A DNA stretch of 29,483 nt. It comes from an uncultured Acidobacteriota bacterium. Its GTDB lineage: Bacteria; Acidobacteriota; Blastocatellia; Pyrinomonadales; Pyrinomonadaceae. Of this stretch, positions 1 through 13,870 are shown piece by piece. The position numbers and the translations under genes are program-made. Numbering within the stretch: position 1 is the first letter of the stretch; the number at the start of each line of letters is the position of its first letter. The notes under the pieces are model-generated. The model was not told the DNA's origin. It worked only from the letters and a program-made list of their open reading frames with translations, and made no database searches. The stretch is from the NCBI GenBank assembly GCA_902826385.1, contig CADEEU010000003.1:1-29483 (forward strand). Reading direction: 5' to 3'.

Positions 1-1494
1 CGCGCGTTTTTTACCCGGCGGATTCAATCCTGTATTTTTGCACAGGTTGCATTTCACCGCGAGCAGATCGTCGGTTGCCGTGACCGGAGGTGGAAGCTTT
101 GTCTGCCCGAGTGAAAGAACGGAAAGCGCGCTTGAGATTAAGTTGACGTTTGTCTCGATGCCGCCGTGCATCGGCACCATCGATATCGCGTTGTAGGGAC
201 ATTGCGTCGCACAGTCGCCGCAGCCAATGCAGGTCGCGCGGTTGATGTCGATTTCGCCGTCGGGAAAGCGAGCAATGGCTCCGGTCGGGCACCCGGTCAG
301 GCATTCCGGGTCCTGGCAATGCATGCATACGGTCGGGACAAGGACACTTTGCGTTGCACTTCGCGTTGGTTTTACAGGCCGTTCGATGTGAATGCCGCGG
401 CGGACGAGACGCGATGTACCGTGCACTTTGTGACAGGCGAGCGAACAATTGCCGCAACGGATGCACTTCGCCATGTCCATCACGAGCAGGTTGACCGCAT
501 CGGCTATGCCGGTTTCTATCTCGCGGCTGGCGGCGGTCAGCGAACGTTTGTCATCGGGCGGCTCAGGGGCTTCAGACGGTCCTGTTTCCGACATCGCTTT
601 CAATGCGGGTACGACGGCATTGCGTAAATTTGCTTCGTCTCGAAGCCGCGTGACCGCAATCTCCAGCACCTCGATACGGCTGCGGGCGGTTGCGGTAAAT
701 TTCCAGTCGGCGGGTTTGTCTACCGCATTAAGCCCAAGGCACGTCCCGTCACCGATCAGGTCCATAGCGACCGAACCGTCATCGAGCAAAAGGTCGGCCG
801 CAAGCGGATTAAACTCCGCTCCGCTAACTCGCTGAAGCCAGCCGTTGCGGATGTAGATGACGCGATTTACCGGATCGCCCTCGCGAAAAAGAACGTGGTC
901 TTTTTCATAGACAACGAATCGAGCCGCGTCACCTAATTGCTTTCGAACGTCAGCCGTAAGCTGAGAGCCGGCGGCCTCGTTCAGTTCGTTCAAAGTTAAG
1001 GAAAGGCCGTATGAGCGGTAGTTTCGATCAAGAGCCTTACCGAATTTCGGTAGCTTGCGAAGCAGGCGAATAGCGGGGCGCATCATCTCGATCACGATCG
1101 CCGATTCATTACCGCTGACGATCACGGACGCACTTCGCGGCGTGCCGGAAAGCAAGGCCATTTCGCCGAACGAATTTCCGGGCGCAACCTCGCCTACTTT
1201 TCGCAGTGAGCCCTGATCGGTGACAGTGGCGTCAAGCTTACCGGTGACAAGAATATAGAAGATACTGCTTTCCCATGTGTTTTCGACGATGATCGTTTCG
1301 CCAGGCTGGTATTCGAGAAGCCGTGCGTAGGGACCGACTTTTTTGGCGCGATAGCTGCGGCCAAACAGAATGACGTCCATTTCAAGCTCATTCTTAAACT
1401 CCTCGTTCGGAAGTTTTTCGACAAGCTCTGAAACGATATCTACATTCTGGAACGCCTCGATGATCAGGTCGTGATTTGTAATTTCACGCGGCAT
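1..1494 (-). CDS. Two cyclic-nucleotide-binding domains fused to a DmsB/NrfC-type 4x[4Fe-4S] ferredoxin domain (3' end outside the window)
   Basis: Hand-translated, not in the ORF track. ATG at 1494 with GAGAGG upstream; the frame is open for 498 codons to the window edge. First cNMP cassette FGEMALLSGTPRSASV; second domain VLFREGDPVNRVIYIRNG. Cys motifs CIRCGNCSLAC, CMHCQDPECLTGCP, CIGCGDCATQCP and KCNLC. Confidence 0.88.
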   Translation of the reverse strand, partial: MPREITNHDLIIEAFQNVDIVSELVEKLPNEEFKNELEMDVILFGRSYRAKKVGPYARLLEYQPGETIIVENTWESSIFYILVTGKLDATVTDQGSLRKVGEVAPGNSFGEMALLSGTPRSASVIVSGNESAIVIEMMRPAIRLLRKLPKFGKALDRNYRSYGLSLTLNELNEAAGSQLTADVRKQLGDAARFVVYEKDHVLFREGDPVNRVIYIRNGWLQRVSGAEFNPLAADLLLDDGSVAMDLIGDGTCLGLNAVDKPADWKFTATARSRIEVLEIAVTRLRDEANLRNAVVPALKAMSETGPSEAPEPPDDKRSLTAASREIETGIADAVNLLVMDMAKCIRCGNCSLACHKVHGTSRLVRRGIHIERPVKPTRSATQSVLVPTVCMHCQDPECLTGCPTGAIARFPDGEIDINRATCIGCGDCATQCPYNAISMVPMHGGIETNVNLISSALSVLSLGQTKLPPPVTATDDLLAVKCNLCKNTGLNPPGKKRA

Positions 1495-1521
1495 CGGCCT
1501 CTCTTTTTCACCGAGAAGATA

Positions 1522-1923
1522 TTAGGTTGGTTTGGTGTAGAAGTAAAAAGCAACTCCGCCCGCAATGATCGCAAATGCGAATAAAAGTAAAAGTGCTGCC
1601 GAACCAACAACGATCCAAATGACGTAAGAGTTCTTTTTTGGTTCGGATTTCGGCAGTGCTACGGCCGGTTTAACGACGGGCTGAATTGGAATCTTTGTAA
1701 CGGGATTTAGAGGCTTATCCGGAGTTTCCGAAATGTTCAGGCCCATGTCCGACAGTACCATGTTGAACGCCGTTTGGCTGAACTGAATGGTGTTGCCTGA
1801 GGCTTCGAACTCAGAATTTTCGATCCGCTGCTGTTCAGCCTCAAGCGGACTGCCGCACCCGGGGCAGAATGCTTTTGCCGCGTCTGCCGTTTCTCCGCAA
1901 TTGTTACAACTTCTAATACCCAT
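1522..1923 (-). CDS. Zinc-ribbon protein with C-terminal transmembrane helix
   Basis: N-terminal CNNC-x10-CPGC, a Pro-rich linker and the hydrophobic segment YVIWIVVGSAALLLLFAFAIIAGGVAFYFY; it starts 5 nt after the upstream stop. Confidence 0.75.
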   Translation of the reverse strand: MGIRSCNNCGETADAAKAFCPGCGSPLEAEQQRIENSEFEASGNTIQFSQTAFNMVLSDMGLNISETPDKPLNPVTKIPIQPVVKPAVALPKSEPKKNSYVIWIVVGSAALLLLFAFAIIAGGVAFYFYTKPT

Positions 1924-1928
1924 GCGGA

Positions 1929-2576
1929 TCAGTTCGACTTGTGGCAGATAAGACAGTCCTGCGTGGTTGCAAAGCCCGGTTTCTTTTTCAGCTCAGGACG
2001 CAGCTTTGCGGCCGCATCGTGGCAGGTGTTGCAGTTGATGTGATAAGCAAGCTCGTTGTTGAGATCTTTTTTTATCGATTTGCCACCCTCGGTGTAGAGG
2101 GCTGTCGGCATCGTCTTATCGTCGGGAACACTTCCGTCCTGAAAGTGGCAGAAACGACATTCATTTACTTTTTGCGGTGAGGCTTTCCACGATTCGAGGG
2201 TCAGCGACACCTCTCTTTCGGAAGTAACGAGCGGGGATTTCATCGCCGACTTTGGTTGATCGGTATGATGGCATTCAACGCAGCCGACCACCGATTTGCC
2301 GTCCGGGCTGTAAGGCTTGAACGCATGTGTTTCATGACTGAAAGGAACTTCGCCATATTCGGACAAACTGTCCTTACCGAGCGTGAATTCCTTGCTCATC
2401 GTTTTGTCTGCCGCAGGGGGCTTAGCAGTCGTATTTGCGGTTGCGGGCGTCGGAGACGGTTTTGCCTGAGCCTGTACGGTGGTACGCAAATCCGGCAGAT
2501 CGACCGAACCGATCGCTATGAACGCCGCGGCCGAGACAAAAACTGTTATCACAAATATTTTCAATAGGTTGGTCAT
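1929..2576 (-). CDS. Tetraheme class III (c3-type) cytochrome c, exported or membrane-anchored
   Basis: Hydrophobic N-terminus; FSHETH, then CVECHH, CRFCH, YHINCNTCH and CLICH, which is the c3 ligand pattern. Confidence 0.9.
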   Translation of the reverse strand: MTNLLKIFVITVFVSAAAFIAIGSVDLPDLRTTVQAQAKPSPTPATANTTAKPPAADKTMSKEFTLGKDSLSEYGEVPFSHETHAFKPYSPDGKSVVGCVECHHTDQPKSAMKSPLVTSEREVSLTLESWKASPQKVNECRFCHFQDGSVPDDKTMPTALYTEGGKSIKKDLNNELAYHINCNTCHDAAAKLRPELKKKPGFATTQDCLICHKSN

Positions 2577-2602
2577 ACGGTGGGCCGGGAGAGGGCAATT
2601 AA

Positions 2603-2632
2603 ATTAAACCGTACTTTTCGAACTCATGTCAA
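2603..2632 (-). promoter_or_regulatory. Putative internal sigma70 promoter for the tetraheme cytochrome and downstream genes
   Basis: The minus strand reads TTGACA-N18-TTTAAT within the only ~107-bp gap of the leftward gene run. Confidence 0.45.
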
Positions 2633-2683
2633 TGATTTTGGGACGAGACGAATTCTGTATTTTTGCGACGTAACAATCCATTT

Positions 2684-3553
2684 CTAGTTCGGAAGCATGT
2701 CGAAGCCCGAGCCTGCGTGACATCGTTTGCAGTTGGCAAAATCGGCGTCGCCGAAAGCTCGAACGTTGTTGTGGCAGGTGGCACAGCTTGTTCGATTGCC
2801 GTCGGCTTTGCGATGACCGTGTACGAGAGGCAATGTAACCTGGCGTGATTGCGGAGCACGAGCAACAATATCGTGACACTCGTTACAGGAAACTCCTTGG
2901 GCAGAAGAATGAGATGCGTGGCTGAAAACCGCACGGAATGCGTATCGCGATTGCGGCGTGCGGCTGTAGGGGGCGAGTTCGTGACAGACGTTGCACGAAC
3001 CGATCTTGCTCTCCGGCGTGTGGCAGGATAAACAATCTGCGTGAGCACTTATCCCCGCGGGAATCGATTTAGCCGCACCGGCAGGTGAATGACACGCAAC
3101 GCAGCCGTTACGCGGCTCGGCGGCCCCGCGTGAGTGAACAGCGTGGTCGAACTTCATATTAAAGCCTTCTGAAAACTTTGCGGGAAATGCCGCAACCGTC
3201 GGCGGCGATACATTCAGGTCTTGATGACAAATGGCGCACATCTTCGGCTCTTGCGACGTGAACTGATTTAGATGACAGCCAATGCACGAATCGTGTCCGG
3301 CGTATTTCAATTCCATCGAAACCTTCAACGATCCGGATTCGCGTTGGTGGCAGGAATCGCAAGCGAAAGATTGATGCTCGGGAATGCGGTGAGAGAAATT
3401 TTCAAACGTTTTTTGCGAAGTTCGCACTAACGGAGGTTCGGGCGTTTCCAACGAGGTGATTGTCGGCTGAAGACGTTCGCCCTTTTGAAGGCACGATGCA
3501 ACAAAGATCGCGAATACGATTGCGAGAATGCCTTTCTTTAAGAATGTTTTCAT
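2684..3553 (-). CDS. Nonaheme cytochrome c lipoprotein (three c7-like triheme modules)
   Basis: Start reassigned to ATG 3553 (MKTFLKKGILAIVFAIFVASC, lipobox-like VASC). Nine motifs: CDSCH, CIGCH, CAICH, CVACH, CLSCH, CNVCH, CNECH, CATCH, CKRCH, in triplets each preceded by F[S/D]H..H. Confidence 0.88.
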   Translation of the reverse strand: MKTFLKKGILAIVFAIFVASCLQKGERLQPTITSLETPEPPLVRTSQKTFENFSHRIPEHQSFACDSCHQRESGSLKVSMELKYAGHDSCIGCHLNQFTSQEPKMCAICHQDLNVSPPTVAAFPAKFSEGFNMKFDHAVHSRGAAEPRNGCVACHSPAGAAKSIPAGISAHADCLSCHTPESKIGSCNVCHELAPYSRTPQSRYAFRAVFSHASHSSAQGVSCNECHDIVARAPQSRQVTLPLVHGHRKADGNRTSCATCHNNVRAFGDADFANCKRCHAGSGFDMLPN

Positions 3554-3588
3554 TAACGCGGTTTGTTGGCCTGCTTCATTCCATCCAC

Positions 3589-4611
3589 TCAATTCTGATG
3601 GCTCGGCGGAATCGGGAACCTTCCGACCTCGGGCGAATGGCAGTAAATACACTGAAACGTCGGTTTCTTTTCCTCCAAACTCGCCTCCCGTTTTCCGATC
3701 TCTTCGCGAATCACAGGTCCGTGGCACGAACTCGTGCTGCACGTCAGGATAGGCACGTCCGCATCCTTCATCTTTGCTATGTCGGAGTTTTGCGCAATTC
3801 GGACGTGACAGGTCATACAGTCTTTATTGACGTGGTTTTTGCTCAAGTGATCGAACTTTATCGAATACCGGCTGATTGTGTTCGAATCGAAATACGGTGT
3901 CGTCAATTTATGACAACCCGCGCAATCAGTACGGGCGGGTTTTTGATTTTGATAATGACACGTGAAACAGGACGCATGCGAGTTCGGCGAATCTTTGAAA
4001 AAACCTGCAGCGGGCAGAAACGCTCCGGTCGCTGCTTCGACAAGCGGCTTCACCCCAGCTGAAACACGCGGGCCGTATTTTGGAAGTTTTTCCGTCGTTT
4101 TATGACAGATCGCGCAGTTATTGAATTCAGGCGTTTTCGGATCGTCTGCGGATCGAAAATTAGTCGGAACAAAATGGGCGACCACAGTTTCCGTTTGTTT
4201 GACGTTCCTTGCGATCAAATCCTGATGGACGTCGTGAGGGAAAACAATTGAAAATTCCTGCGAACGGGAACGAACGGGAAACGGAAATCTGGCCGCACCT
4301 CGTGGGCCGGGATTCGTGTGACAACCCGCACAGATCGCCGGTCGGTTACCGCTGAAAAAATCGCGGCGGTGACAATTGATGCATGATGCATGGCCCGGAA
4401 AGTCAGCGACGTCCGGATAGCCGCGAGTTGAAACCCAATTGGACGTCGGAACTTTGTGGCATGAACTGCAGTCGATCTTTTTGTGTGAAGCAGAGGCGTG
4501 CGAGAACCCTTTGTCACGCCGCTGGGCCGAAGCCGGGTCGGACGGACCGAGAAACATCACGGCCGCAGCCGACGCAAAAAAAGCAAAAATGAACAAGACG
4601 CGAAGTTTCAT
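3589..4611 (-). CDS. Nonaheme cytochrome c (three c7-like modules; 8 CXXCH plus 1 CX4CH), Sec signal peptide
   Basis: ATG 4611 overlaps the upstream TGA (ATGA). Motifs CSSCH, CINCH, CAGCH, CAICH, CFTCH, CAGCH, CMTCH, CSTSSCH, CIYCH; signal peptide ends ASA-Q. Confidence 0.88.
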   Translation of the reverse strand: MKLRVLFIFAFFASAAAVMFLGPSDPASAQRRDKGFSHASASHKKIDCSSCHKVPTSNWVSTRGYPDVADFPGHASCINCHRRDFFSGNRPAICAGCHTNPGPRGAARFPFPVRSRSQEFSIVFPHDVHQDLIARNVKQTETVVAHFVPTNFRSADDPKTPEFNNCAICHKTTEKLPKYGPRVSAGVKPLVEAATGAFLPAAGFFKDSPNSHASCFTCHYQNQKPARTDCAGCHKLTTPYFDSNTISRYSIKFDHLSKNHVNKDCMTCHVRIAQNSDIAKMKDADVPILTCSTSSCHGPVIREEIGKREASLEEKKPTFQCIYCHSPEVGRFPIPPSHQN

Positions 4612-5372
4612 TTTTGCTCGCACGCTCCTGTTCCGCATTGCGGCAGATCTTTCACGATGACTTCACAATTTTTTATTGTTTTACCCGCTTCCGGCACCTG
4701 TAAATTAAGTTTTGCCGTTTTGCCTGGTTCGACCGAAACCTCGCACGCCCAGACATAGCTCTTCTTTCCCACTTCCATCGCCAAGATGTTCGACACCGTA
4801 AACTTTGTCGCGACCGGCACCGGAATATCAATGAAGATAGATTTGACCGTAATGGTATCGGTCATCGACGACTGAAGCGGTTTTGCGTTACCGAGCAGGG
4901 TTTCCGAAAGCGTTCGTTTTTGAAGGTAAAAACCGTTGACCAGGTTCGCCGACATGTTGGTCAAAAGCCAGTCACGGGCGATCGCGGGTTTAGATCGGAA
5001 CTGCGTCATGCCTTTTGTGAATGCCGCCTTAAATTCCGGCACACTCTGAATCTCGCTCTCCGACGGCGTCCGGCAATATGGCGATTCGCAATCGGCCGCC
5101 TGCAGCCAGCAGATGAACGGCTGGCTGGCCTTCGCCCGCTTGTAATAGCAATCACGCGAAACGACCTCGGCGGTTCTGATCCGCTCGAGCAGGGAAGAGT
5201 TTTCTTTGAGTCCACCAGTAAAAAGATAGAAACGTTTCCGCGTCAACTTCTCCACCTTGCCGTCGATCTTCACCCGGCCTGAAACTTCGAGAGCTCCTGT
5301 CGAGGCAGCCTGCGGCAAAGCCATCGGTGCCAGAAGAAACGTTAAGAATGTGACAGCGAGACAGCGAGGCAT
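4608..5372 (-). CDS. Hypothetical secreted Cys-rich protein
   Basis: 254-aa ORF with a signal-peptide-like start and 8 Cys in the mature part but no CXXCH; tightly coupled to both neighbours (3-nt gap, 4-nt overlap). Confidence 0.75.
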   Translation of the reverse strand: MPRCLAVTFLTFLLAPMALPQAASTGALEVSGRVKIDGKVEKLTRKRFYLFTGGLKENSSLLERIRTAEVVSRDCYYKRAKASQPFICWLQAADCESPYCRTPSESEIQSVPEFKAAFTKGMTQFRSKPAIARDWLLTNMSANLVNGFYLQKRTLSETLLGNAKPLQSSMTDTITVKSIFIDIPVPVATKFTVSNILAMEVGKKSYVWACEVSVEPGKTAKLNLQVPEAGKTIKNCEVIVKDLPQCGTGACEQK

Positions 5373-5375
5373 AAT

Positions 5376-7031
5376 CTACGGCAGAGTCGGACGGGCTGGG
5401 AACTTTAAGAAAGGAAGCCGGACGCCGCGTACCAGCACTCGGTCGGAACGCATCTCGACGGCAGGGGCAAAATTATTCGCACCTGCGGCAGCTATAAAAT
5501 CGTCCTGATCGATGCCGTCGCCGCTAACCCCGATTCCGCCCGCGAGCACGCCGCCTTTGTAAATTGGCAGGCCGCCTGCAAAAATCTGAATACCGTTCGG
5601 TAATTCCGGAATTGTTGTGCACGGACACGGAGCCATGCCGCCGCGTTTCTGTCGGCCGTACGCGCGACAGCTTACAGGCGGAGAAACGAGAGCGGTCCGA
5701 ATAAGATCCAACTGAAGCCCCACATTGAACGGGCTCCAATTAGAAAGCGGCGTGCTGAACGGACCAGCAGTTGTATTATTAATACCGTCCGGGAACAGAG
5801 GTCGATGTAGAAAACCAACCGCACGGTCACTAAACGCCACCGAGCCGTTCAAACCAATTCCGTCCGCCGCCGCTCTCGTAACGTAGCTGCCAAATCCGGC
5901 GGCGTTCAATTTTGTCGCAGCGTCCGGACGCGCGAAGAACATCGACGTACGCGCCTTTTGTACCGAAACGTCCAGCCCAAAAATCGGAGCATCGTTTTGA
6001 CCGAAAATTCCAAGAACCGCGCCGTTGACATCGACCACGGCGACGTTCACACGCGCGTTGCCGCCGATCGGCTGACGAATCCCGGCTCTCGTGATATTCG
6101 CGATCTGTGCCGCCGAGGCGAGTATCTGCTGAACGTCCGCAAGCGTCAGAACCGTTCCGGCCGTTGTTGGAAAACGTACAGTCGCTCGTCCCGGAACCCC
6201 ACCCGCCGTCGTTGGAAAAAAATCGCTCGCCGGCGCGGCTATTACAGGAGCGGTAACGCTACCAGGCAGACTGCCGAACGGCGTCGTCGGCACGTCCGGC
6301 ACGGTCGCATTGTTTAGATAGGGAAGCCGGATTCCTTCGACAAGAATATTGTCGCCGCGGATCAGTGGCGGCGATTCAAATCCGCGCACTGCGGCGATCG
6401 CAATGATCTCTTCCACAGCCTGATCGTTATCCAGCGGGTTGCGATCGATCGTGTAAAGTCCGTCGCCCTCAATACCGACGCCTCCGACCGCGAATCCATT
6501 TTTATAAACCGGTATGCCGCCGGGATCGCCGGAAAGCCCGAGAGGCAAACCCTCGATCGCAACATCCGAACACGGAAGAGTGGAAAATTGCACGCCGTAA
6601 AGCGGTCCACCGGGACGATTGTCGATGCCGGGCGGGAAATGTTCCTGAATGATGAACGAAGCCGTGCGAGTGGTGAATGCGTTACCGGACGTAGAAAACA
6701 AGCCGGCCGTGCCAGCCTTTGAATACGAAGCCGCGGCGCTCGGCACGATCAAATTCTCGAGTCCCTGACCGGCCGTTCCGACGCTTCTGATAAGCGTCGT
6801 TGATGATGCGCCGGTCATCGCGAATGTGCCCAGCAGATTACCCTCATTGTCCGTAACTGAAACCGTTACGCGCTGATTCAATGCGCCAGCGGCAGAAACG
6901 GCCTGCGCAATTATCCGCTGAACATCGACGACTGTAAGACTGTTTTGAGAAAAGACAGGAAGATTAAAAAGAAGCAGGATCGCGGCACTGGCAAAAAACT
7001 CAAATTTTTTCACCCGGCATTTTCGGTTCAT
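5376..7031 (-). CDS. Secreted heme-binding protein with two GlcG/HbpS (DUF336) domains
   Basis: Two repeats of LT..DVQ.I.A.A...A...V.V.V.D..G..LG.F, each followed by G.P.YK.G...GG.G..GDG.D motifs; N-terminal signal peptide (VFS-Q). The start could alternatively be the GTG six codons downstream. Confidence 0.82.
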   Translation of the reverse strand: MNRKCRVKKFEFFASAAILLLFNLPVFSQNSLTVVDVQRIIAQAVSAAGALNQRVTVSVTDNEGNLLGTFAMTGASSTTLIRSVGTAGQGLENLIVPSAAASYSKAGTAGLFSTSGNAFTTRTASFIIQEHFPPGIDNRPGGPLYGVQFSTLPCSDVAIEGLPLGLSGDPGGIPVYKNGFAVGGVGIEGDGLYTIDRNPLDNDQAVEEIIAIAAVRGFESPPLIRGDNILVEGIRLPYLNNATVPDVPTTPFGSLPGSVTAPVIAAPASDFFPTTAGGVPGRATVRFPTTAGTVLTLADVQQILASAAQIANITRAGIRQPIGGNARVNVAVVDVNGAVLGIFGQNDAPIFGLDVSVQKARTSMFFARPDAATKLNAAGFGSYVTRAAADGIGLNGSVAFSDRAVGFLHRPLFPDGINNTTAGPFSTPLSNWSPFNVGLQLDLIRTALVSPPVSCRAYGRQKRGGMAPCPCTTIPELPNGIQIFAGGLPIYKGGVLAGGIGVSGDGIDQDDFIAAAGANNFAPAVEMRSDRVLVRGVRLPFLKFPARPTLP

Positions 7032-7181: not shown

Positions 7182-9281
7182 ATGCCTGTTGACCGAATAA
7201 AACTTACAACCGCCATTTTCATTGTTCTCGTCGTCGGGACATTGTGTTCGTTCGCACAGAATTCCAACGGCCGACTTATTGGAAAGGTTCTCGATGCGGA
7301 CAGCAAACCGCTCGCGGGCGTTACCGTTGTCGTCACCAACCAAACGACATCGCAGACACGAACTGAAATTACGGAATCGGATGGAGAATTTTCTTTTCGC
7401 CTCCCGGAAGGGGCCTACAAAATAAGCGTTGCCGATCCATTTGAAGCCAGGTTTGATCGGGGCAAGGTCGCCGAATATGGAACGTTCGCAAACGTAATCT
7501 GCGATCAAACAAAGAAGCTCTGCCCTACGCTTGAGAACGTAATAATCGACGGAGGCGAGAAGAAAATAGAATTCATCGCCGTCGATACTTCGAAAACAGA
7601 CCCAACCAAACCTGAAAGCAAAAAAGAGCCGGACAGCCGCGAAACGCTCGATCGGTGGCGAATAGGCTTTCCCGAATACGACCGCTACGGCGACAAAGGT
7701 GCACGCGGACGCGACATTCCGTTTCGCCGAAGCCGCTGGTACGACCCCTATAATCAAAACGTTCTCAAAGGCGACAAACCGATTTTCGGCGACGATTATT
7801 TCATCGTGTTGTCGGCGGTGAGTACGACCGGTTTCGAATTACGCCGAACGCCATCCGGCAATAACGTCAGCTCAAACGAACCAGCCAGCAATAATTTTTT
7901 CGGCCGCCCTGAGAGCCTTTCTTTTAACCAAACAATTCAGCTTTCGTTCGAACTGTTCAAAGGCCAAACCGTTTTTCAGCCGAGGCAATGGGCGATAAAA
8001 ATTTCACCGACGTTCAGTGTGCCGAACTACCTGAACGCTCGCGAAAACGGCATCGTTAACATCGACGTCCGTCGCGGAACAAACCGCGTGGATCTTCATG
8101 CCTCACTCGAAGAGGCGTTCGCCGAGGTGAAGTTGTTCGACACGAACGACAATTACGACTTCGTCTCCGTGCGTGCCGGCATTCAGCCCTTTACCGCCGA
8201 CTTCCGCGGTTTTCTTTATTCGGACAACAACCTCGGCATTCGCACTTTTGGGGCGTTTTCGAACAATAAATCGCAGTTTAACTTTGCGTATTTTCGACAG
8301 CTTGAAAAAGACACGAACAGCAATCTGAACTCATTGGAAGAATTGCGTGGCCAGGACATTTTTATCGGCAATTTTTTCCGGCAGGATTTTTTGTTTAAGG
8401 GCTACACCATCCAAGGCGTCGCCGCATACAACCATGACCGGGCAGACACGCATTACGACAGCAACGGTTTTCTGGTGCGGCCGGCATTGGTCGGCAGTTT
8501 TCAACCGCACGCGGTGAAGGCCGGTTATATTGGCATTAACGGCGACGGTCACATCGGCTGGCTGAACCTGACGAACTCCTATTACTTTTCATTCGGCGAG
8601 GACGAGTTCAATCCGATAGCGGGACGCAGAACACAGATCAGAGCACACATGGCGGCGGTCGAGGCATCCGTTGACCGTGACTGGCTTCGGTATAAAGTTT
8701 CTGCTTTTTATGCCTCCGGCGATAAAGAGCCGACAGATGATAAAGCGGGCGGCTTTGACGCCATTTTCGATGACCCAAATTTCGCGGGCGGACAATTTTC
8801 CTATTGGAACCGTCAGGGCATTCGGCTTGTCTCGACCGAGATCGGGCTGGTGCAGCCGAACAGCCTGTTGCCAAGTTTGCGTTCGAGCAAAACCGAAGGC
8901 CAGGCGAACTTCGTAAATCCCGGGCTGATGCTTTTCAACCTAGGCGTCGATGCCGAGGTGACGCAAACGGTCAAGGCAATATTCAATGCGAATTATTTGC
9001 GTTTCGATCGCACCGAACCACTCGAATATGTTTTGTTCCAACCACGTGTACGGCACGAAATCGGCACCGATTTGAGCCTAGGCGTAATCTACCGGCCGTT
9101 TTTGGTCAACAATATGACATTCACCTTCGGCGGCAATATTTTCCTGGCCGGCAAGGGCTTTCGCGACGTTTATACCGACCGTTCACGGAACTGTCCGATA
9201 CCAAGCTTCTGCACGCCCGACGTGCCGAACCCATCGAAGCCGCAGTACACGTTGTTTAGTCAGATGAAGTTGATATTTTAA
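7182..9281 (+). CDS. Outer-membrane beta-barrel protein with N-terminal carboxypeptidase-regulatory-like domain
   Basis: Signal peptide (SFA-Q); domain GRLIGKVLDADSKPLAGVTVVVTN...GEFSF.LPEGAYKI; many alternating amphipathic strands; terminal beta-signal QMKLIF. Confidence 0.8.
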   Translation: MPVDRIKLTTAIFIVLVVGTLCSFAQNSNGRLIGKVLDADSKPLAGVTVVVTNQTTSQTRTEITESDGEFSFRLPEGAYKISVADPFEARFDRGKVAEYGTFANVICDQTKKLCPTLENVIIDGGEKKIEFIAVDTSKTDPTKPESKKEPDSRETLDRWRIGFPEYDRYGDKGARGRDIPFRRSRWYDPYNQNVLKGDKPIFGDDYFIVLSAVSTTGFELRRTPSGNNVSSNEPASNNFFGRPESLSFNQTIQLSFELFKGQTVFQPRQWAIKISPTFSVPNYLNARENGIVNIDVRRGTNRVDLHASLEEAFAEVKLFDTNDNYDFVSVRAGIQPFTADFRGFLYSDNNLGIRTFGAFSNNKSQFNFAYFRQLEKDTNSNLNSLEELRGQDIFIGNFFRQDFLFKGYTIQGVAAYNHDRADTHYDSNGFLVRPALVGSFQPHAVKAGYIGINGDGHIGWLNLTNSYYFSFGEDEFNPIAGRRTQIRAHMAAVEASVDRDWLRYKVSAFYASGDKEPTDDKAGGFDAIFDDPNFAGGQFSYWNRQGIRLVSTEIGLVQPNSLLPSLRSSKTEGQANFVNPGLMLFNLGVDAEVTQTVKAIFNANYLRFDRTEPLEYVLFQPRVRHEIGTDLSLGVIYRPFLVNNMTFTFGGNIFLAGKGFRDVYTDRSRNCPIPSFCTPDVPNPSKPQYTLFSQMKLIF

Positions 9282-9373: not shown

Positions 9374-9401
9374 CTAAAACTAATTGCGAAGAATACAAAC
9401 C

Positions 9402-12400
9402 ATGATCGCAAAGAGCAACAAACAAAATCGGCTCAAGCTCATCGTCCTGATCGTCTTTGCGTTTCTCGCGACGGTGGTTTATTGGAAACATTCCTCGCAC
9501 GCTCAGAATGCGGCGAACACGAACGGTCGTCCTGCCCCATCGACTGAGACCTCAACGACACCGACCACAACGCCGGAAGTAAAACTCGAAGGCTGCCTGA
9601 AATGTCATAACAACATAGAGCCGATGCATCGCTACAACACTCGCGGCGATGTGTTCGATACGCTCGATGAAGGGAGGGATGCACAGGGCCTAACCTGCAC
9701 GGCATGTCATGGCGGCAACCCGGCGGCGATCACGCAAAGGGAAGCTCACGTGCAGCCGAAATTTCCGAAAGAGTGGAATTGCAAAAACGGAGATTGTTCC
9801 AGCCGAAATCCGGAGCGTACGAACACGCTGCTCGCACGCGAAAGCTCGGAATTTGTGAGGTTCGTGAATCCCGGCGATTTTCGTGTCATCGCACAATCCT
9901 GTGGAGAATGCCACGCGGACGAAAATCAAAAAGTTTCACGCGGGATGATGGCCCACGGGGCGATGTTGTGGGGAGCGGCCCTTTATAACAACGGCTCGCA
10001 TCCGATCAAGGATGCCCAGTTCGGCGAAAGCTACGACGAGAACGGCAACCCGCAAACTTTGTTTCAAGCACCGAAACCGACGCGCGAAGATCAGGCCTCG
10101 AAAGGCCATCTCGAATTCTTGAGCCCGTTGCGGCGATGGGAGATCTCACAGCCGGGCAATGTACTTCGCGTCTTCGAACGCGGCGGCAAACGCCGGTTGG
10201 AGGTTGGGCTGCCCGATAAAGAGGAAGAAGGCGGAAAGCCGGATAAAGGCCTGAGCCCTCGCGGATTGGGCACAAACAACCGCACCGATCCGGTTTTTCT
10301 CGGCATACAAAAAACTCGACTGCTCGACCCGACTTTAAATTTCCTTGGCACTAACGATCACGCCGGCGATTACCGTTCGGCCGGCTGTACTGCGTGTCAC
10401 GTGATTTATGCGAACGACACTGGCGTCGCCGCCAGTTCCTATGCTGCGGCAGGTAATCGCGGATTCTCGCAATCGGCGGACACGAGCATTCCGAAAAACG
10501 AAGCCGGTCATCCGATAAAACATCAGTTCACATCGCGCATCCCGACCACGCAGTGTATGACCTGCCACATGCATCCGGGCACGAATATGGTCGCCACCTA
10601 CTTAGGGCAAACGTGGTGGGACAATGAATCGGACGGAAAAGCGATGTACCCGCAGGATCGGCAGATCAACCCGACGCAGGCTGACGAGGTGAAAAAGCTC
10701 GACAAGAATCCCGAAGGAGCGAGCTTGCGTGGGCTTTGGACCGATTCCGTGTTCTTACAAAACACCGGCACCGCCGATTTCAACAGCAAATTGAAAAATG
10801 TCCAGTTCGCCGATTCGCACGGACACGGGTGGATGTTCAAGAACGTCTATAAAAAAAACCGGAAGGGAAATTTGCTCGATGCGGAAAATAAAATAGTTTC
10901 GCCCGATGATCCCGACAAATTCAAAAAAGCCGTACATCTTAAGGACATCCACCTCGAAAAAGGGATGCACTGCGCCGACTGTCACTTCAGCCAGGACAGC
11001 CACGGTACGGGCATTCTCTACAACGAGCCGCGGGCGGCAGTCGAGGTCGGGTGTGTCGATTGTCACGGATCGATAACGGCCCGTGCGAATGGAATAACAA
11101 GCGGCCCGGCAGCGATGGCTCCGGAAAACCGCAATGAATTGCGTCTTCGCGAACAACAGAAAAAACCACTCATCGGCCGCGACCTGACACGGCTGCGATT
11201 CCGAACGCCGGACGGGAAGCGGACGCCGGTGATGGAAATTTTGACCCGCGACACGACGCGAAAAGACGTCGCCGGAAACGACATCCAGTTGAAACGCGGC
11301 GACGTGATCCAAAATTCCATTGTCGAACCCGGCCTTTGGTGGAAGGTGAAGCAAACCGCCGACACCGTCACGCCCGCCAGCCCTGATTACAACGAAAAAT
11401 CAGCCTACGCCAAAACAATGCAGCGGGACAACGCAACATGGGGCGACGTGAATGTGGCGGAGAATAAACTCGCGCATCAGGACAAAAGCATCACCTGCTA
11501 CGCCTGTCACACGTCTTGGGTGACGAGCTGTTTCGGCTGCCATCTGTCGATGGAGGCGAACCGCAAGATGCCGAACCGCCACAACGAAGGCGGCGATTCG
11601 CGCAACTTTACTTCATATAATTTTCAGGTGATCCGCGACGATATTTTTATGCTTGGCAAAGATGGAACTGTTACAGGACATAAAGTCGCTCCCGTTCGGT
11701 CGAGCTCGGCTGTGCTGGTCTCGTCGCGCAACCAGAACCGTGAATGGATCTATCACCAGCAGCAAACGGTCTCGGCCGAAGGATTTAACGGGCAGGCGTT
11801 TAATACGCACGTGCCGCATACCGTCCGCGGCAAAGAAACGCAGTCGTGCTCCGACTGTCACATGTCCAAAGACCGCGACAATAATGCGTGGCTCGCCCAG
11901 GTGATGCTGCAGGGCAGCAACTTCGTGAACTTTATGGGGCGCTACGTTTATGTCGCGACCGAACACGCGCTTGAGGCCGTCGCCGTCACCGAACACACCG
12001 AACCGCAGGCCGTTTATGGAAGCAATCTGCACCGGCTGGCGTACAAGGACAATTTCGAAAAGTTCGTAAACGGCGGTCGCGAGCTAAAAGAGTATTACGA
12101 AAACAAAGGCCGCCCCGAAGCCTTGCAAGTACAAGTACGCGGCGAGTATGCCTATGTCGCTGCCGGCAAGGGCGGCCTGCGCGTTTACGACATCGCCCAG
12201 ATCGATCACAAGGGGTTTTCCGAACGCATAGTGACCGCTCCAGTCTCGCCGCTCGGGCAACGGTTTTACGTCGATACCAAAAATGCGGTCGCCGTTGCCG
12301 CGCCTTCCATGCTTGCGGTCGATCCAGCAAGATGGCGAACCGTGCGAAATAACGACGGCACTTACAAACAGGTGCCGCCTGAAGAAGCACTAAAATTAAA

Positions 12401-13388
12401 CGCCGAAGCGAAAGCCGCAGGTAAACCTGCCCCAGCAGTTAACGAAGAAGGCCCGATCCATCCGCTATACGCCTATCTATACGTAGCCGATAAAGAGGAG
12501 GGCTTGATCCTGGTCAATGCTGTGACTTTGCTCGACGGCGACCCGCGAAATAATTTTCTAAGTCGAGCCCTGACCTACAATCCCAGCGGCACATTGACTG
12601 GCTCGAACAATATCACGCTCGCGGGAAATTTTGCTTACATTACGACCGAAAAAGAATTGGTGATCGTCGATCTTTCGACGCCTCTGGAACCGAAGATCGC
12701 CGTGCAGATTCCGTTGAATCGACCGAAAGCGGTCGCGGTACAATTTCTATATGCGTTTGTCGTTGACGCAGACGGGATGAAAGTTCTGGATATAAAAGAA
12801 CTTCAGACTTCGGGCAAAGTTTCGCTTGTTGAAACGGCGGTCGTGCCGATTAAAGACGCGAAGGACATTTACGTCGCCCGCACATATGCCTATGTCGCGA
12901 ACGGCTCGGAGGGCGTCGCGATAATCAATGTCGAACGGCCCGAAAATCCGAAACTCGACCAGACATTCAACGATGGAGGCGGCATCAACGACACACATTC
13001 GATAAAAGTCGCGATGACCAATGCCAGCCTTTACGCCTACGTCGCCGACGGCAAAAACGGCCTGAAAGTTTTGCAGTTGACCGACCCGGAAACAATGCCC
13101 GAGTACGCTGGCTTTAGCCCGCGGCCGCAACCGAAACTGATCGCAAGTTTCAAAACAAAAGGCGACGCACTCTCTATCTCAAAAGGCCTCGACCGCGACC
13201 GGGCCGTCGATGAAAGCGGCAACCAGATCGCCGTGTTCGGCCGCCGCGGAGCCAGGCCCTTCACATTCAACGAACTGATGCGGATGCTGCGAAGCGATGA
13301 CGGCAAAGGCGAGTTCTTCTGGGTTTCGGACGAACCGAATAAGCCTTCCCACGCTAAACTCTCGCCGTTATTTTCCTTATACTGGTAA
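9402..13388 (+). CDS. Large exported decaheme cytochrome c fused to C-terminal LVIVD-repeat beta-propeller
   Basis: ATG 9402, signal peptide ending SHA-Q. Ten CXXCH: CLKCH, CTACH, CGECH, CTACH, CMTCH, CADCH, CVDCH, CYACH, CFGCH, CSDCH. Repeats include GEYAYVAAGKGGLRVYDI, YLYVADKEEGLILVN, GNFAYITTEKELVIVDLS, TYAYVANGSEGVAIINV and YAYVADGKNGLKVLQL. Confidence 0.88.
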   Translation: MIAKSNKQNRLKLIVLIVFAFLATVVYWKHSSHAQNAANTNGRPAPSTETSTTPTTTPEVKLEGCLKCHNNIEPMHRYNTRGDVFDTLDEGRDAQGLTCTACHGGNPAAITQREAHVQPKFPKEWNCKNGDCSSRNPERTNTLLARESSEFVRFVNPGDFRVIAQSCGECHADENQKVSRGMMAHGAMLWGAALYNNGSHPIKDAQFGESYDENGNPQTLFQAPKPTREDQASKGHLEFLSPLRRWEISQPGNVLRVFERGGKRRLEVGLPDKEEEGGKPDKGLSPRGLGTNNRTDPVFLGIQKTRLLDPTLNFLGTNDHAGDYRSAGCTACHVIYANDTGVAASSYAAAGNRGFSQSADTSIPKNEAGHPIKHQFTSRIPTTQCMTCHMHPGTNMVATYLGQTWWDNESDGKAMYPQDRQINPTQADEVKKLDKNPEGASLRGLWTDSVFLQNTGTADFNSKLKNVQFADSHGHGWMFKNVYKKNRKGNLLDAENKIVSPDDPDKFKKAVHLKDIHLEKGMHCADCHFSQDSHGTGILYNEPRAAVEVGCVDCHGSITARANGITSGPAAMAPENRNELRLREQQKKPLIGRDLTRLRFRTPDGKRTPVMEILTRDTTRKDVAGNDIQLKRGDVIQNSIVEPGLWWKVKQTADTVTPASPDYNEKSAYAKTMQRDNATWGDVNVAENKLAHQDKSITCYACHTSWVTSCFGCHLSMEANRKMPNRHNEGGDSRNFTSYNFQVIRDDIFMLGKDGTVTGHKVAPVRSSSAVLVSSRNQNREWIYHQQQTVSAEGFNGQAFNTHVPHTVRGKETQSCSDCHMSKDRDNNAWLAQVMLQGSNFVNFMGRYVYVATEHALEAVAVTEHTEPQAVYGSNLHRLAYKDNFEKFVNGGRELKEYYENKGRPEALQVQVRGEYAYVAAGKGGLRVYDIAQIDHKGFSERIVTAPVSPLGQRFYVDTKNAVAVAAPSMLAVDPARWRTVRNNDGTYKQVPPEEALKLNAEAKAAGKPAPAVNEEGPIHPLYAYLYVADKEEGLILVNAVTLLDGDPRNNFLSRALTYNPSGTLTGSNNITLAGNFAYITTEKELVIVDLSTPLEPKIAVQIPLNRPKAVAVQFLYAFVVDADGMKVLDIKELQTSGKVSLVETAVVPIKDAKDIYVARTYAYVANGSEGVAIINVERPENPKLDQTFNDGGGINDTHSIKVAMTNASLYAYVADGKNGLKVLQLTDPETMPEYAGFSPRPQPKLIASFKTKGDALSISKGLDRDRAVDESGNQIAVFGRRGARPFTFNELMRMLRSDDGKGEFFWVSDEPNKPSHAKLSPLFSLYW

Positions 13389-13396
13389 GAGTTAGA

Positions 13397-13870
13397 ATGC
13401 AGAACAAAGAGCAAGACATCGAAACGAAATACAAAACCCTTGTCGTTCTTTGGGCGGCGATGATCGTTTCGCAACTTCTTTTTGTACTGGTGATTTTTTT
13501 CACCCGGCCAAAGCTTTTTCAGCTCGATTTCGGTCAGCCGCTGCTCGGTGATGGCGACCACGGCAGCACCGGGGCCGTGGTAATAGGCTTCGCTGTCGCC
13601 GCGATTACGGCCGTTGCTTTTTCTTTTGCGTTCCGCCGTCGCCTAAACGAGCGTGCCGTTGCCGAGCAAAGTCCGGCAAACGTACAGACCGGTTTCATTA
13701 TTGCCCTCGCATTCTCAGAAGCCGCTTCCCTTTTCGGCCTGGCCCTGGCGTTTGCGTTCGATTATCAATATTTCTTTCTTTGGATGATTCTCGGGATCGC
13801 GGCGATGATTCTGCATTTTCCAAAGCGCACAGAATTCCACGCGGCCAGCTACAAACAAAATCTTTCGTAA
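13397..13870 (+). CDS. Four-TM membrane protein of unknown function
   Basis: 157 aa with four hydrophobic segments; starts 8 nt after the decaheme gene stop. Confidence 0.78.
   Translation: MQNKEQDIETKYKTLVVLWAAMIVSQLLFVLVIFFTRPKLFQLDFGQPLLGDGDHGSTGAVVIGFAVAAITAVAFSFAFRRRLNERAVAEQSPANVQTGFIIALAFSEAASLFGLALAFAFDYQYFFLWMILGIAAMILHFPKRTEFHAASYKQNLS

Follow-up and report, generated by a model that had tools for sequence, protein, structure and literature searches.

Two published gene sets are the closest described counterparts of the locus analysed here. One is the porin-cytochrome cluster PCC4 (He, Barco, Emerson & Roden 2017; PMC5566968); the other, the ptdABCDEFG operon (bioRxiv 10.1101/2023.11.21.568154), includes PtdG, a periplasmic decaheme cytochrome, and PtdE, an Fe-S protein with a cyclic-nucleotide-binding domain. 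Neither paper assigns a function to its cluster. The extHIJKLMNOPQS cluster of Geobacter sulfurreducens comprises the porin ExtI and the cytochromes ExtKL, ExtM, ExtN and ExtS, and loss of ExtI lowers selenite and tellurite reduction (PMC5877670).

The window, i.e. the whole 29,483-nucleotide stretch of contig CADEEU010000003.1 that was analysed (assembly GCA_902826385.1, an uncultured bacterium of the Pyrinomonadaceae, Acidobacteriota), carries a gene for a ten-heme cytochrome joined to an LVIVD propeller (Table 1). Set against their descriptions, the predicted module matches PCC4 and ptdABCDEFG by gene content and motifs. As in both, a porin gene adjoins a multiheme cytochrome gene, the ten-heme cytochrome is predicted to be periplasmic (a location that we infer here), and the module includes a pfam13247 Fe-S protein with a cNMP-binding domain and a tetraheme cytochrome, together with two components present in the loci of relatives, a FAD/NAD(P) oxidoreductase and a conserved inner-membrane, FRD-like protein with two WX3HX13H motifs. 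Unlike both, the window lacks the pentaheme cytochrome and instead encodes two nine-heme proteins of the c7 type, and it also has a double HbpS-like protein; its barrel has an N-terminal beta-sandwich, and its cNMP/Fe-S protein is fused to a membrane domain. A propeller on the decaheme is not mentioned in the text of either paper. The adjacency of barrel and decaheme genes, and the putative role in envelope electron transfer, are shared with MtrCAB, MtoAB and PioAB.

Gene and protein architecture

The open reading frame has two candidate starts, TTG at 9384 and ATG at 9402, and homologues start at the ATG. The N-terminus consists of a basic n-region and a 16-residue hydrophobic core followed by S-H-A as a possible cleavage site, and inspection of this N-terminal sequence found no lipobox. 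In the 82 relatives the N-terminal layout is like that of the window's protein, with a lipobox instead in some; the linker position is occupied by 20-60 residues rich in Ala, Pro, Thr and Ser, and approximately 15 of the 82 carry a C-terminal TM helix with a basic (Arg) tail. The anchors and lipoboxes at one end and the TM helices and Arg tails at the other would fit a membrane-tethered periplasmic protein, and we infer a periplasmic location for the decaheme.

Table 1. Features of the decaheme locus; nucleotide positions are those of the window, residues those of the decaheme protein
Feature	Residues (aa)	Position (nt)	Strand	Basis or remarks
Divergent operon, PCC4/Ptd-type module genes		1..7031	-	Also in locus L001 and many of 80 loci
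Outer-membrane barrel gene (699 aa)		7182..9281	+	N-terminal CarboxypepD_reg beta-sandwich; C-terminal Phe
Decaheme/LVIVD-propeller protein gene	1-1328	9402..13388	+	1328 aa; ORF and translation
N-terminal signal peptide or signal anchor	1-35	9402..9506	+	Read from sequence
Thr/Pro-rich low-complexity linker	36-60	9507..9581	+	Sequence; pLDDT <50 in model
Compact ten-heme domain	61-845	9582..11936	+	AF2 model, profile match, fold match
Heme site 1, CLKCH	65-69	9594..9608	+	Invariant in 82 sequences
Heme site 2, CTACH	99-103	9696..9710	+	Motif scan, conservation
Heme site 3, CGECH	167-171	9900..9914	+	Followed by invariant M183, Y195, K203
Heme-free insert	172-328	9915..10385	+	Conservation profile; pLDDT low in part
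Heme site 4, CTACH	329-333	10386..10400	+	Motif scan, conservation
Heme site 5, CMTCH	385-389	10554..10568	+	With invariant H391
Heme sites 6 and 7, CADCH and CVDCH	524-555	10971..11066	+	c3/c7-like pair
Heme sites 8 and 9, CYACH and CFGCH	699-714	11496..11543	+	With invariant H692, H727
Heme site 10, CSDCH	816-820	11847..11861	+	Invariant H806; last heme before propeller
Seven-bladed LVIVD beta-propeller	846-1300	11937..13301	+	Pfam LVIVD; model; fold comparison
Propeller loop K-G-F-S-E-R-I-V-T-A-P-V-S-P-L-G	937-952	12210..12257	+	Predicted barrel contact

Heme sites and heme domain

CXXCH occurs exactly ten times in the protein (aa 65, 99, 167, 329, 385, 524, 551, 699, 710 and 816), whereas 1000 shuffled sequences of the same composition contained 0.011 on average and 1 at most. 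The motifs span 756 residues (aa 65-820), include 20 of the protein's 22 Cys, and are separated by heme-free gaps of 157, 134, 143 and 101 residues; the decaheme with motifs over about 750 residues and long gaps that the earlier note had described is thus what is found. All ten sites are invariant among 82 family members; among distant relatives, about half have CX4CH at site 3. The 82-sequence conservation profile further revealed the conserved H512, H517, H523 and H534 beside heme sites 6 and 7 and, over the whole protein, 13 conserved His outside the motifs as well as the invariant M183. Since the latter would supply ligands enough for ten hemes, six-coordination of all of them appears possible. 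Neither CXXCK nor a conserved Cys outside the motifs was found, and nothing shows the five-coordinate heme that the earlier note had suggested looking for. Further invariant residues are K203, Y195, Y739, R161, R256, R287, R325 and R745.

The AF2 model of aa 45-900 is compact (pLDDT 79, pTM 0.81), and the pTM of a model that combines heme domain and propeller (aa 129-1328) is 0.85. Conservation along the protein peaks in the insert following heme site 3 (column identity 0.5-0.79, highest at aa 241-320), which contains the invariant residues R256, R287, D309 and R325. No Pfam match was found for any of the four long heme-free inserts. Heme sites 6 and 7 lie in a region (aa 503-564) matched by the Pfam families Cytochrome_C7, c3_2 and C554, and hemes 1-3 match an NrfB profile (E 1.5e-5), with weak matches to NrfA. 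The sole multiheme fold match is octaheme OTR (1sp3), aligned over 279 residues across its whole chain at Z 4.3, which is below the noise level of the tool, and a Foldseek search of PDB and Swiss-Prot found no relative. Structure prediction and fold search, as had been suggested, thus yielded a compact fold and a seven-bladed propeller, with this weak OTR match as the only lead to a known multiheme fold.

Propeller and barrel partner

The C-terminal stretch of about 480 residues previously read as LVIVD repeats is confirmed by Pfam LVIVD (PF08309), which matches the whole protein at E 1e-20 and aa 850-1328 at E 4e-24 in five stretches. The scores are 73-84 bits, where the cut-off is 20.2, and the stretch models as a seven-bladed propeller. 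The domain is present in 18 of 18 full-length representatives. Its core (aa 846-1263) matches seven-bladed propellers at VIA Z 29-30, the closest solved structures being lactonase-type (3hfq, 6igb and 1jof, all seven-bladed), while NirS appears among generic Foldseek propeller matches. The propeller is modelled with a pLDDT of approximately 95 and is predicted to be rigidly packed on the heme domain.

The barrel gene lies 120 nt upstream of the decaheme gene, and in 66 of 67 related loci, which span Acidobacteriota, Planctomycetota, Fervidibacter and Pseudomonadota MAGs, a barrel gene immediately precedes the decaheme gene in the same orientation. In one homologous locus a 29%-identical barrel (E 1e-47) stands beside a 41%-identical decaheme. 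The barrel core comprises only about 500 residues. In two homologues of the barrel, the N-terminus bears a tetraheme domain, which suggests that the barrel lies in the electron path.

Co-folding of barrel and propeller gave a score of 0.49 (runs 0.72, 0.00 and 0.49; best control 0.00), classed as weak support. Of 80 solved complexes 58 attain this level, as do 2 of 110 mismatched pairs. Passes of 0.60 or lower are wrong in more cases than they are right, except where the pairing was already likely, and the predictor reads alignments and may be drawn to conserved patches. The propeller residues of the predicted interface have a mean conservation of 0.815 versus 0.587 for the domain (p ~0.002), and the barrel side consists of short conserved turns (p ~0.04). 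The loop predicted at the barrel (aa 937-952) is the most conserved one of the propeller. At that level of support, the model suggests that the propeller serves in docking and not as the cap over an active site that the earlier note had considered.

Distribution and gene neighbourhood

The family is large, with 13,224 matches in a 50%-identity library and more than 6,300 close homologues, and occurs in about 600 species genomes of several phyla at 48-50% identity between phyla. Judged from the sequences, the family as a whole retains both the propeller and all ten heme sites, with CX4CH at site 3 in some distant members. Most carriers belong to ordinary aerobic heterotroph lineages (Pyrinomonadaceae, Bryobacteraceae, Planctomycetota), and the DNA of the window was matched in wastewater, biofilter and drinking-water metagenomes. 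Pfam, NCBIfam and the literature searched give the family no function, in agreement with the earlier description of an uncharacterised, exported multiheme redox protein, which the N-terminal export signal, ten hemes, propeller and well-scored model bear out.

The divergent operon encodes the double HbpS-like protein, an uncharacterised protein of 254 aa, the two nine-heme c7-type cytochromes, a tetraheme cytochrome (215 aa, 4 CXXCH) and a small zinc-ribbon protein. It also encodes a cNMP-binding/4Fe-4S protein whose gene runs off the contig (window 1-1494, minus strand; cNMP_binding E 5e-23, Fer4_11 E 6e-9). A cNMP plus Fer4_11 protein recurs beside distant family members. The membrane part with the WX3HX13H motifs would lie beyond the contig end in the window; two such motifs are present in membrane proteins adjoining family members in loci L014, L015 and L047. 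In relatives a Pyr_redox_2 (NAD(P)H/FAD) domain is fused or adjacent to the module. No conserved secretion system was found in the neighbourhoods of related loci. This gene context, i.e. the upstream barrel and the match to PCC4/Ptd, had been left out of the earlier note.

Comparison with known multiheme families

MtrA holds ten hemes in about 300 residues (300-350) and threads the 26-strand MtrB. The window's protein differs from it in its 756-residue heme span, its compact body and a propeller of about 460 residues, and in a predicted contact on the short turns of the barrel rather than inside it as in MtrCAB. An MtrA-type periplasmic decaheme is ruled out by span, compact model (pTM 0.81) and propeller, and the earlier contention that this is not an MtrA-like compact wire stands. 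The premise that spread hemes indicate an enzyme overlooks MtrC and OmcA, which distribute ten hemes over roughly 650-750 residues. Assignment to the MtrC/OmcA type is not supported either: PF22113 reaches 19.4 of the 30 bits required, over aa 47-108 only, the lipobox is missing, and Foldseek against Swiss-Prot, a library expected to hold MtrC and OmcA, matched no reviewed protein.

The weak 1sp3 fold match and the NrfB profile match link the heme domain to OTR, NrfA and NrfB; unlike OTR, it has ten hemes instead of eight, additional domains of about 400 residues and the propeller. The octaheme enzymes bear special active-site marks, namely CXXCK in NrfA, a Lys-ligated heme in OTR and a Tyr cross-link in HAO. 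Membership among them (OTR, NrfA, HAO/ONR) is not supported, given no CXXCK, no family-model match at meaningful scores and a Z of only 4.3 for 1sp3. The octaheme model TIGR04315 is not listed by NCBIfam at E up to 1, and the octaheme, cd1, HZS_alpha and P460 models of Pfam and NCBIfam gave nothing at meaningful E-values.

With cytochrome cd1 (NirS), hydrazine synthase and the quinohemoproteins, the protein shares the covalent fusion of a c-type cytochrome to a beta-propeller. The propellers of cd1 and PQQ enzymes are eight-bladed and hold the cofactor, and that of the hydrazine synthase alpha subunit is six-bladed, in contrast to the seven-bladed LVIVD/lactonase type found here, which is combined with ten hemes rather than one or two. 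Searches of sub-regions with the PQQ, cd1 and HZS_alpha Pfam models gave no match even at E up to 10; together with the blade number, this speaks against membership in these enzyme families.

Ext likewise combines, in one cluster, a porin, cytochromes with 4, 5, 10 and 12 hemes and a membrane b-type cytochrome, but uses a Rieske/cytochrome b module and not an FRD-like protein, and a propeller is not reported. The NCBIfam models for ExtM (68 bits, cut-off 800, limited to the c3-like pair of hemes 6-7) and ExtN (24 bits, cut-off 200, a weak match to aa 682-825) score far below their equivalog cut-offs, excluding either identity, and the barrel of the window does not match the Ext models.

Discussion

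The reading that we favour, with a probability of about 0.55, makes the protein the decaheme component of an envelope electron-transfer module of the PCC4/Ptd type, in which it acts as a six-coordinate terminal outer-sphere reductase or relay, not as a substrate-binding catalyst. Exported by its N-terminal signal or anchor and held on the flexible linker, as read from the sequence, it would gather its ten c-type hemes into a single compact domain some 800 residues long (motifs observed, fold predicted) with the propeller rigidly packed on it. The propeller would mainly dock, through loop aa 937-952, on the barrel's short turns, which presumably face the periplasm. Electrons would flow outward, starting from the cytoplasmic cNMP-regulated Fe-S protein; in relatives, an NAD(P)H/FAD oxidoreductase domain is fused to this protein or lies next to it. 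They would pass through a membrane protein that binds b hemes at two WX3HX13H motifs, and then through the periplasmic c7-type cytochromes, to the decaheme, and the latter may then reduce an acceptor located at, or arriving through, the barrel.

The inserts and many invariant Arg, Lys, Tyr and Asp are more conserved than a plain relay seems to need, and the 48-50% identity between phyla is unusually high for known wire cytochromes, which counts against the relay reading. A true catalytic multiheme oxidoreductase, in which one heme sits in a conserved pocket and its sixth position is open or labile, is a rather unlikely but serious competitor. The pocket could for instance lie near heme 3 (M183, Y195 and K203 plus invariant arginines) or at the interface of heme 10 and propeller, and a soluble substrate could enter the periplasm via the dedicated barrel, parallel to ExtI. 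Besides the compact globular model (pTM 0.81-0.85), this is favoured by the four inserts without Pfam match, with aa 241-320 best conserved, by more conserved His than ligands needed in addition to the eight invariant Lys, Tyr and Arg listed above, and by the lactonase-type enzymes being the closest solved propellers. The likeness of the NAD(P)H-fed, FRD-type membrane module to two reductase systems, MsrPQ and NOX/FRE, counts in the same direction, as do OTR as the only multiheme fold match, the weak NrfB/NrfA profiles, and the partial ExtM/ExtN matches with the ExtI result (PMC5877670). Conversely, the OTR score lies below noise and Foldseek found no PDB or Swiss-Prot relative, CXXCK, a conserved non-motif Cys and a match to the octaheme, cd1, HZS_alpha or P460 models are all lacking, the conserved His suffice for all-bis-His ligation, and the tetraheme-fused barrel homologues suggest a barrel in the electron path and not just a substrate pore.

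LVIVD repeats occur in cell-surface proteins (Pfam family; bioRxiv 10.1101/2022.05.06.490989), some relatives are lipoproteins as is MtrC, a barrel is adjacent, and the MtrC/MtrF domain II/IV model gives its sub-threshold 19.4 bits (cut-off 30); a cell-surface terminal reductase or adhesin like MtrC/OmcA, whose propeller binds minerals, polymers or cells, is nevertheless very improbable. The N-terminus of the window's protein is a signal or anchor without lipobox, the TM helix and basic tail of about 15 of the 82 relatives suggest inner-membrane tethering unless they are a sorting signal, and the predicted contact involves short turns, which face the periplasm in outer-membrane barrels; neither a conserved secretion system nearby nor a Foldseek match in Swiss-Prot was found. 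The hypothesis of He et al. (2017) for PCC4, an electron-uptake conduit for Fe(II)/Mn(II) oxidation with inward flow from an extracellular donor, draws on PCC4 in Fe(II)-oxidising Zetaproteobacteria, Hyphomicrobium and drinking-water filter genomes (PMC5566968), and the wastewater, biofilter and drinking-water matches of the window point the same way. For the present family we regard it as the least probable of these readings: the cytoplasmic end is an Fe-S/NAD(P)H-type oxidoreductase, its low-potential centres and the inside-negative membrane potential would make inward flow from Fe(II) thermodynamically unfavourable, and most carriers are of ordinary aerobic heterotroph lineages. On the favoured reading of a terminal reductase or relay, the decaheme would probably form the outer end of a putative electron pathway that is widespread.

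Gene product and family

The decaheme-propeller gene can be read from either of two start codons (see table), and the starts of its relatives coincide with the ATG, which gives a product of 1328 aa. This protein contains exactly ten CXXCH motifs, compared with a mean of 0.011 in same-composition shuffles, and 20 of its 22 cysteines lie inside them. LVIVD repeats were matched by Pfam over the final ~480 residues (E 1e-20 with the whole protein; E 4e-24, in five stretches, over aa 850-1328). The earlier note had described ten CXXCH motifs with heme-free gaps and an LVIVD end of that length, and the reading frame, motif count and Pfam match bear out every particular. The protein begins with a signal or anchor and continues into a low-complexity linker; some relatives have a lipobox. 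About 15 of 82 relatives (e.g. loci L037, L038, L039, L068, L080 and L087, and protein P0126) carry a long low-complexity linker and then a C-terminal transmembrane helix with an Arg/Lys-rich tail, which looks like a sorting signal or membrane anchor and is absent from the window's protein. Judged from sequence, these termini would fit an exported, membrane-tethered periplasmic location, without proving it.

Scoring covered more than 6,300 close homologues. Each of the best 120 is ~1320 aa in length and shares 73-90% identity; those with a named source belong to MAGs of Pyrinomonadaceae or other Acidobacteriota and bear no label beyond 'hypothetical' or 'multiheme c-type cytochrome'. An exhaustive search of 50%-identity representatives returned 13,224 matches at E ≤ 1e-3 and 716 at E ≤ 1e-30, the full-length representatives being 1190-1700 aa long and 40-57% identical. 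The scan of species-representative genomes contained 589 relatives. Hosts comprise Acidobacteriota (Blastocatellia, Terriglobia, Bryobacterales, Thermoanaerobaculia), Planctomycetota and Fervidibacter, with identity still at 48-50%, and a Pseudomonadota MAG supplies one family representative. Few uncharacterised families of multiheme cytochromes seen in the analysis are as large. Its occurrence is patchy: it was found in 31 of 301 genomes of the phylum and in none of the seven other genomes examined from the window's own genus. Near-identical window DNA is present in wastewater, biofilter and drinking-water metagenomes; among the runs listed by a search covering runs of any kind, rather than RNA specifically, no RNA run was shown to hold it.

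All ten heme sites are invariant in the family alignment (82 sequences), and the LVIVD domain is kept in 18 of 18 full-length representatives. Heme site 3 is CX2CH in the window and CX4CH (e.g. C-G-T-A-G-C-H) in about half of the distant members, the relatives listed for this variation being P0124, P0126, P0129, P0133, P0134, P0136 and P0137; downstream of it lie the invariant residues M183, Y195 and K203. One relative from a Logan assembly, P0138 (1648 aa), has 28 CXXCH motifs, namely the conserved ten and 18 extra hemes on the N-terminal side.

Coordinates of the features discussed (nucleotides unless marked aa)
Feature	Position	Strand	Remark
Decaheme-propeller gene	9384 (TTG) or 9402 (ATG) to 13388	+	
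CXXCH motifs	aa 65, 99, 167, 329, 385, 524, 551, 699, 710, 816		
Heme site 3	9900-9914	+	
Barrel gene	7182-9281	+	699 aa
HbpS/GlcG-like gene	5376-7031	-	secreted double protein
Hydrophobic-protein gene	13397-13870	+	157 aa
Predicted interface, propeller side	aa 937-952, 1048-1049		
Predicted interface, barrel side	aa 402-407, 456-462, 497-501, 591-596, 641		barrel numbering
Tetraheme-barrel fusion	L077:1754-3871		related locus
Tetraheme-barrel fusion	L087:5419-7725		related locus
Six-gene co-linear operon	L097:1117-13930		Pseudomonadota MAG

Barrel partner and wider module

Gene context, which the earlier note left unused, is the strongest evidence. An outer-membrane barrel with a C-terminal Phe and an N-terminal CarboxypepD_reg beta-sandwich is encoded 120 nt upstream of the decaheme gene, and in 66 of the 67 related loci with enough sequence the decaheme gene is immediately preceded by such a barrel gene in the same orientation. 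These 66 include a locus in which the decaheme is only 41% and the barrel 29% identical (E 1e-47). Searches of PDB and Pfam with the barrel profile gave no relative apart from the beta-sandwich. In view of this tight linkage, a co-fold was run of the barrel core (aa 157-699) and the propeller (aa 845-1300). The resulting score of 0.49 (runs 0.72, 0.00 and 0.49), against 0.00 for the best control, counts as weak support. Among 80 solved complexes 58 attain this mark, as do 2 among 110 mismatched pairs, and a pass at or below 0.60 is wrong more often than not unless the pairing was likely to begin with. On the propeller side the predicted interface coincides with the propeller loop best conserved in the family (conservation averaging 0.815 vs 0.587 for the domain, p ~0.002), and on the barrel side conservation is 0.63 vs 0.52 (p ~0.04). 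The barrel residues sit in turns of 3-6 residues that alternate with loops of 14-25 residues, and by the general rule for outer-membrane barrels these short turns would face the periplasm. A docking role is likely for the propeller, the loop at aa 937-952 being its predicted contact with the barrel.

A natural porin-cytochrome fusion was observed in two barrel homologues, where an N-terminal tetraheme c3-like domain (four CXXCH) replaces the beta-sandwich of the window's barrel. The N-terminal end of known outer-membrane barrels is periplasmic. The position of the tetraheme places this end of the barrel in the electron path.

A double HbpS-like protein is encoded within 10 kb of the pair in 41 of 49 loci; the window's own HbpS/GlcG-like protein belongs to a type that accompanies the pair nearly as consistently as the barrel itself. 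Distant members of the family adjoin a cNMP-binding/4Fe-4S protein and a membrane protein with two WX3HX13H motifs, and at loci L015 and L097 an NAD(P)H/FAD-type Pyr_redox_2 domain lies beside them. At L097 the whole module forms a single operon in the order Pyr_redox_2/cNMP/Fe-S fusion, 298-aa protein, 568-aa cytochrome, HbpS-like protein, barrel and decaheme; the 298-aa protein, at the position of the membrane protein, has no Pfam match. The same parts occur in the window's divergent operon, namely a cNMP + Fer4_11 protein truncated at the contig end, a tetraheme and a pair of nine-heme c7-type cytochromes. The small hydrophobic protein encoded just downstream of the decaheme has no counterpart in 80 related loci and is therefore probably not part of the module.

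Relation to the PCC4 and Ptd clusters

This gene content matches a cluster type defined as PCC4 by He et al. 2017, with a proposed role in Fe(II) oxidation, which comprises a porin, periplasmic cytochromes with 4, 5 and 10 hemes, a pfam13247 Fe-S gene and an inner-membrane protein of five helices with two WX3HX13H motifs (PMC5566968). The same gene set was described in a 2024 preprint as ptdABCDEFG, in which PtdG is the periplasmic decaheme; cultured carriers are given there in Table S7, among them Roseibium aggregatum, Tistlia consotensis and Sulfidibacter corallicola, and the function is called 'completely unknown' (bioRxiv 10.1101/2023.11.21.568154). Every named feature except the pentaheme is present in the module described here. 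Judged by gene content, the decaheme-propeller protein belongs to a gene-cluster type that has twice been described in silico and never studied experimentally or structurally. A propeller on the decaheme is absent from both texts. Within the searchable literature, the fusion to a propeller that is likely to serve in docking appears to be new, as does the gene content in Acidobacteriota. A preprint on a Ferrigenium 'NHC' and a Tenderiales LVIVD protein were set aside as having no relevance to this protein.

Predicted structure

AF2 models of aa 45-900 (112-row alignment; pLDDT 79, pTM 0.81) and aa 129-1328 (pTM 0.85, propeller pLDDT ~95) predict a heme domain that is one compact body with the propeller fixed on, rather than beads on a string. 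With Foldseek, the heme-domain model had no PDB match at E ≤ 0.001 and no heme-domain relative among Swiss-Prot models, where the sole match was to a small SH3-like insert. The single multiheme match in an exhaustive VIA search, the Shewanella octaheme tetrathionate reductase (1sp3; 279 residues over the whole chain), had a Z of 4.3, which is below that search's own noise level. Over hemes 1-3 the family profile matched NrfB (E 1.5e-5); it also gave a weak match to NrfA and a match to a YncE-family propeller. Partial NCBIfam matches to Geobacter ExtM and ExtN were far sub-threshold; membership of ExtM was rejected on a score far under the cut-off, and ExtM was not found in 14 control genomes. 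Only unnamed cytochromes (16-20% identity, TM ~0.5) were found in AFDB clusters, and only unnamed multiheme clusters in an ESM Atlas feature search. One AFDB cluster match (49% identity) bore the name 'Hydrazine synthase alpha subunit middle domain-containing', a lead that was dropped because HZS_alpha matched neither the window's protein, nor its sub-regions (E up to 10), nor 18 relatives. The propeller aligned best to the seven-bladed lactonase-type propellers 3hfq, 6igb (PpgL) and 1jof (Z 29-30), with WD40 propellers slightly below (Z ~26); its Foldseek list was generic (NirS, AztD, BtuG, BamB).

Electron flow and the question of catalysis

With a probability of roughly 0.55, we favour a mechanism in which electrons would start at the cytoplasmic Fe-S/NAD(P)H module, cross the di-heme membrane protein and be passed by periplasmic c7-type cytochromes to the decaheme, whose propeller would dock under the barrel, an acceptor being reduced at the docked decaheme. 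The low-potential cytoplasmic partner and the membrane potential both favour outward flow, so that the Fe(II)-uptake reading of PCC4 becomes less likely and inward electron uptake by this module appears quite improbable. MtrC and OmcA spread their ten hemes across roughly 650-750 residues, and the earlier note's contrast with the wire decaheme MtrA ignores these two proteins. That the protein is itself MtrC-like and placed at the surface is an improbable reading.

The architecture of the favoured mechanism would also accommodate a true catalytic reductase with a substrate pore, which we regard as rather unlikely, though as the likeliest of the rival readings. The four heme-free inserts lack Pfam matches but are well conserved, the best-conserved stretch of the whole protein being aa 241-320 (0.69-0.79), and K203, Y195, Y739, R161, R256, R287, R325 and R745 are invariant; M183, Y195, K203 and the invariant arginines are candidate pocket residues. 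Likewise, the identity of 48-50% between phyla is high for an electron wire. Against catalysis, 13 non-motif histidines conserved at ≥ 0.9 in the 82-sequence alignment (H76, H116, H370, H374, H391, H475, H512, H517, H523, H534, H692, H727 and H806), together with the invariant M183, would suffice to six-coordinate every one of the ten hemes and leave three or four residues over. CXXCK is absent, as is any conserved Cys beyond the ten motifs, and no cd1, HZS_alpha, P460 or octaheme-enzyme model matched. A catalytic role would also fit the lower selenite and tellurite reduction seen on loss of the Geobacter porin ExtI (PMC5877670).

On a more speculative and rather unlikely reading, the protein would form the catalytic head of a periplasmic reductase of a new class, with cytoplasmic NAD(P)H, and not the quinone pool, feeding it by way of the Fe-S protein and an FRD-like di-heme membrane protein. 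Its propeller would hold it beneath a dedicated outer-membrane channel that brings in the substrate, with one open-coordination heme in a pocket formed by the conserved heme-free inserts. If true, this would amount to a widespread non-respiratory reductive system in aerobic soil and water bacteria, possibly used for assimilatory metal reduction or for detoxification of an oxidant or oxyanion.

The carriers are mostly ordinary aerobic bacteria of soil, water and wastewater that are not regarded as electroactive. If the favoured outward, NAD(P)H-driven flow is true, they would own a respiration-independent envelope reductase system. Answers as to whether the decaheme is a relay or an enzyme, and whether the propeller clamps it to the barrel, would give the PCC4/Ptd clusters a function.
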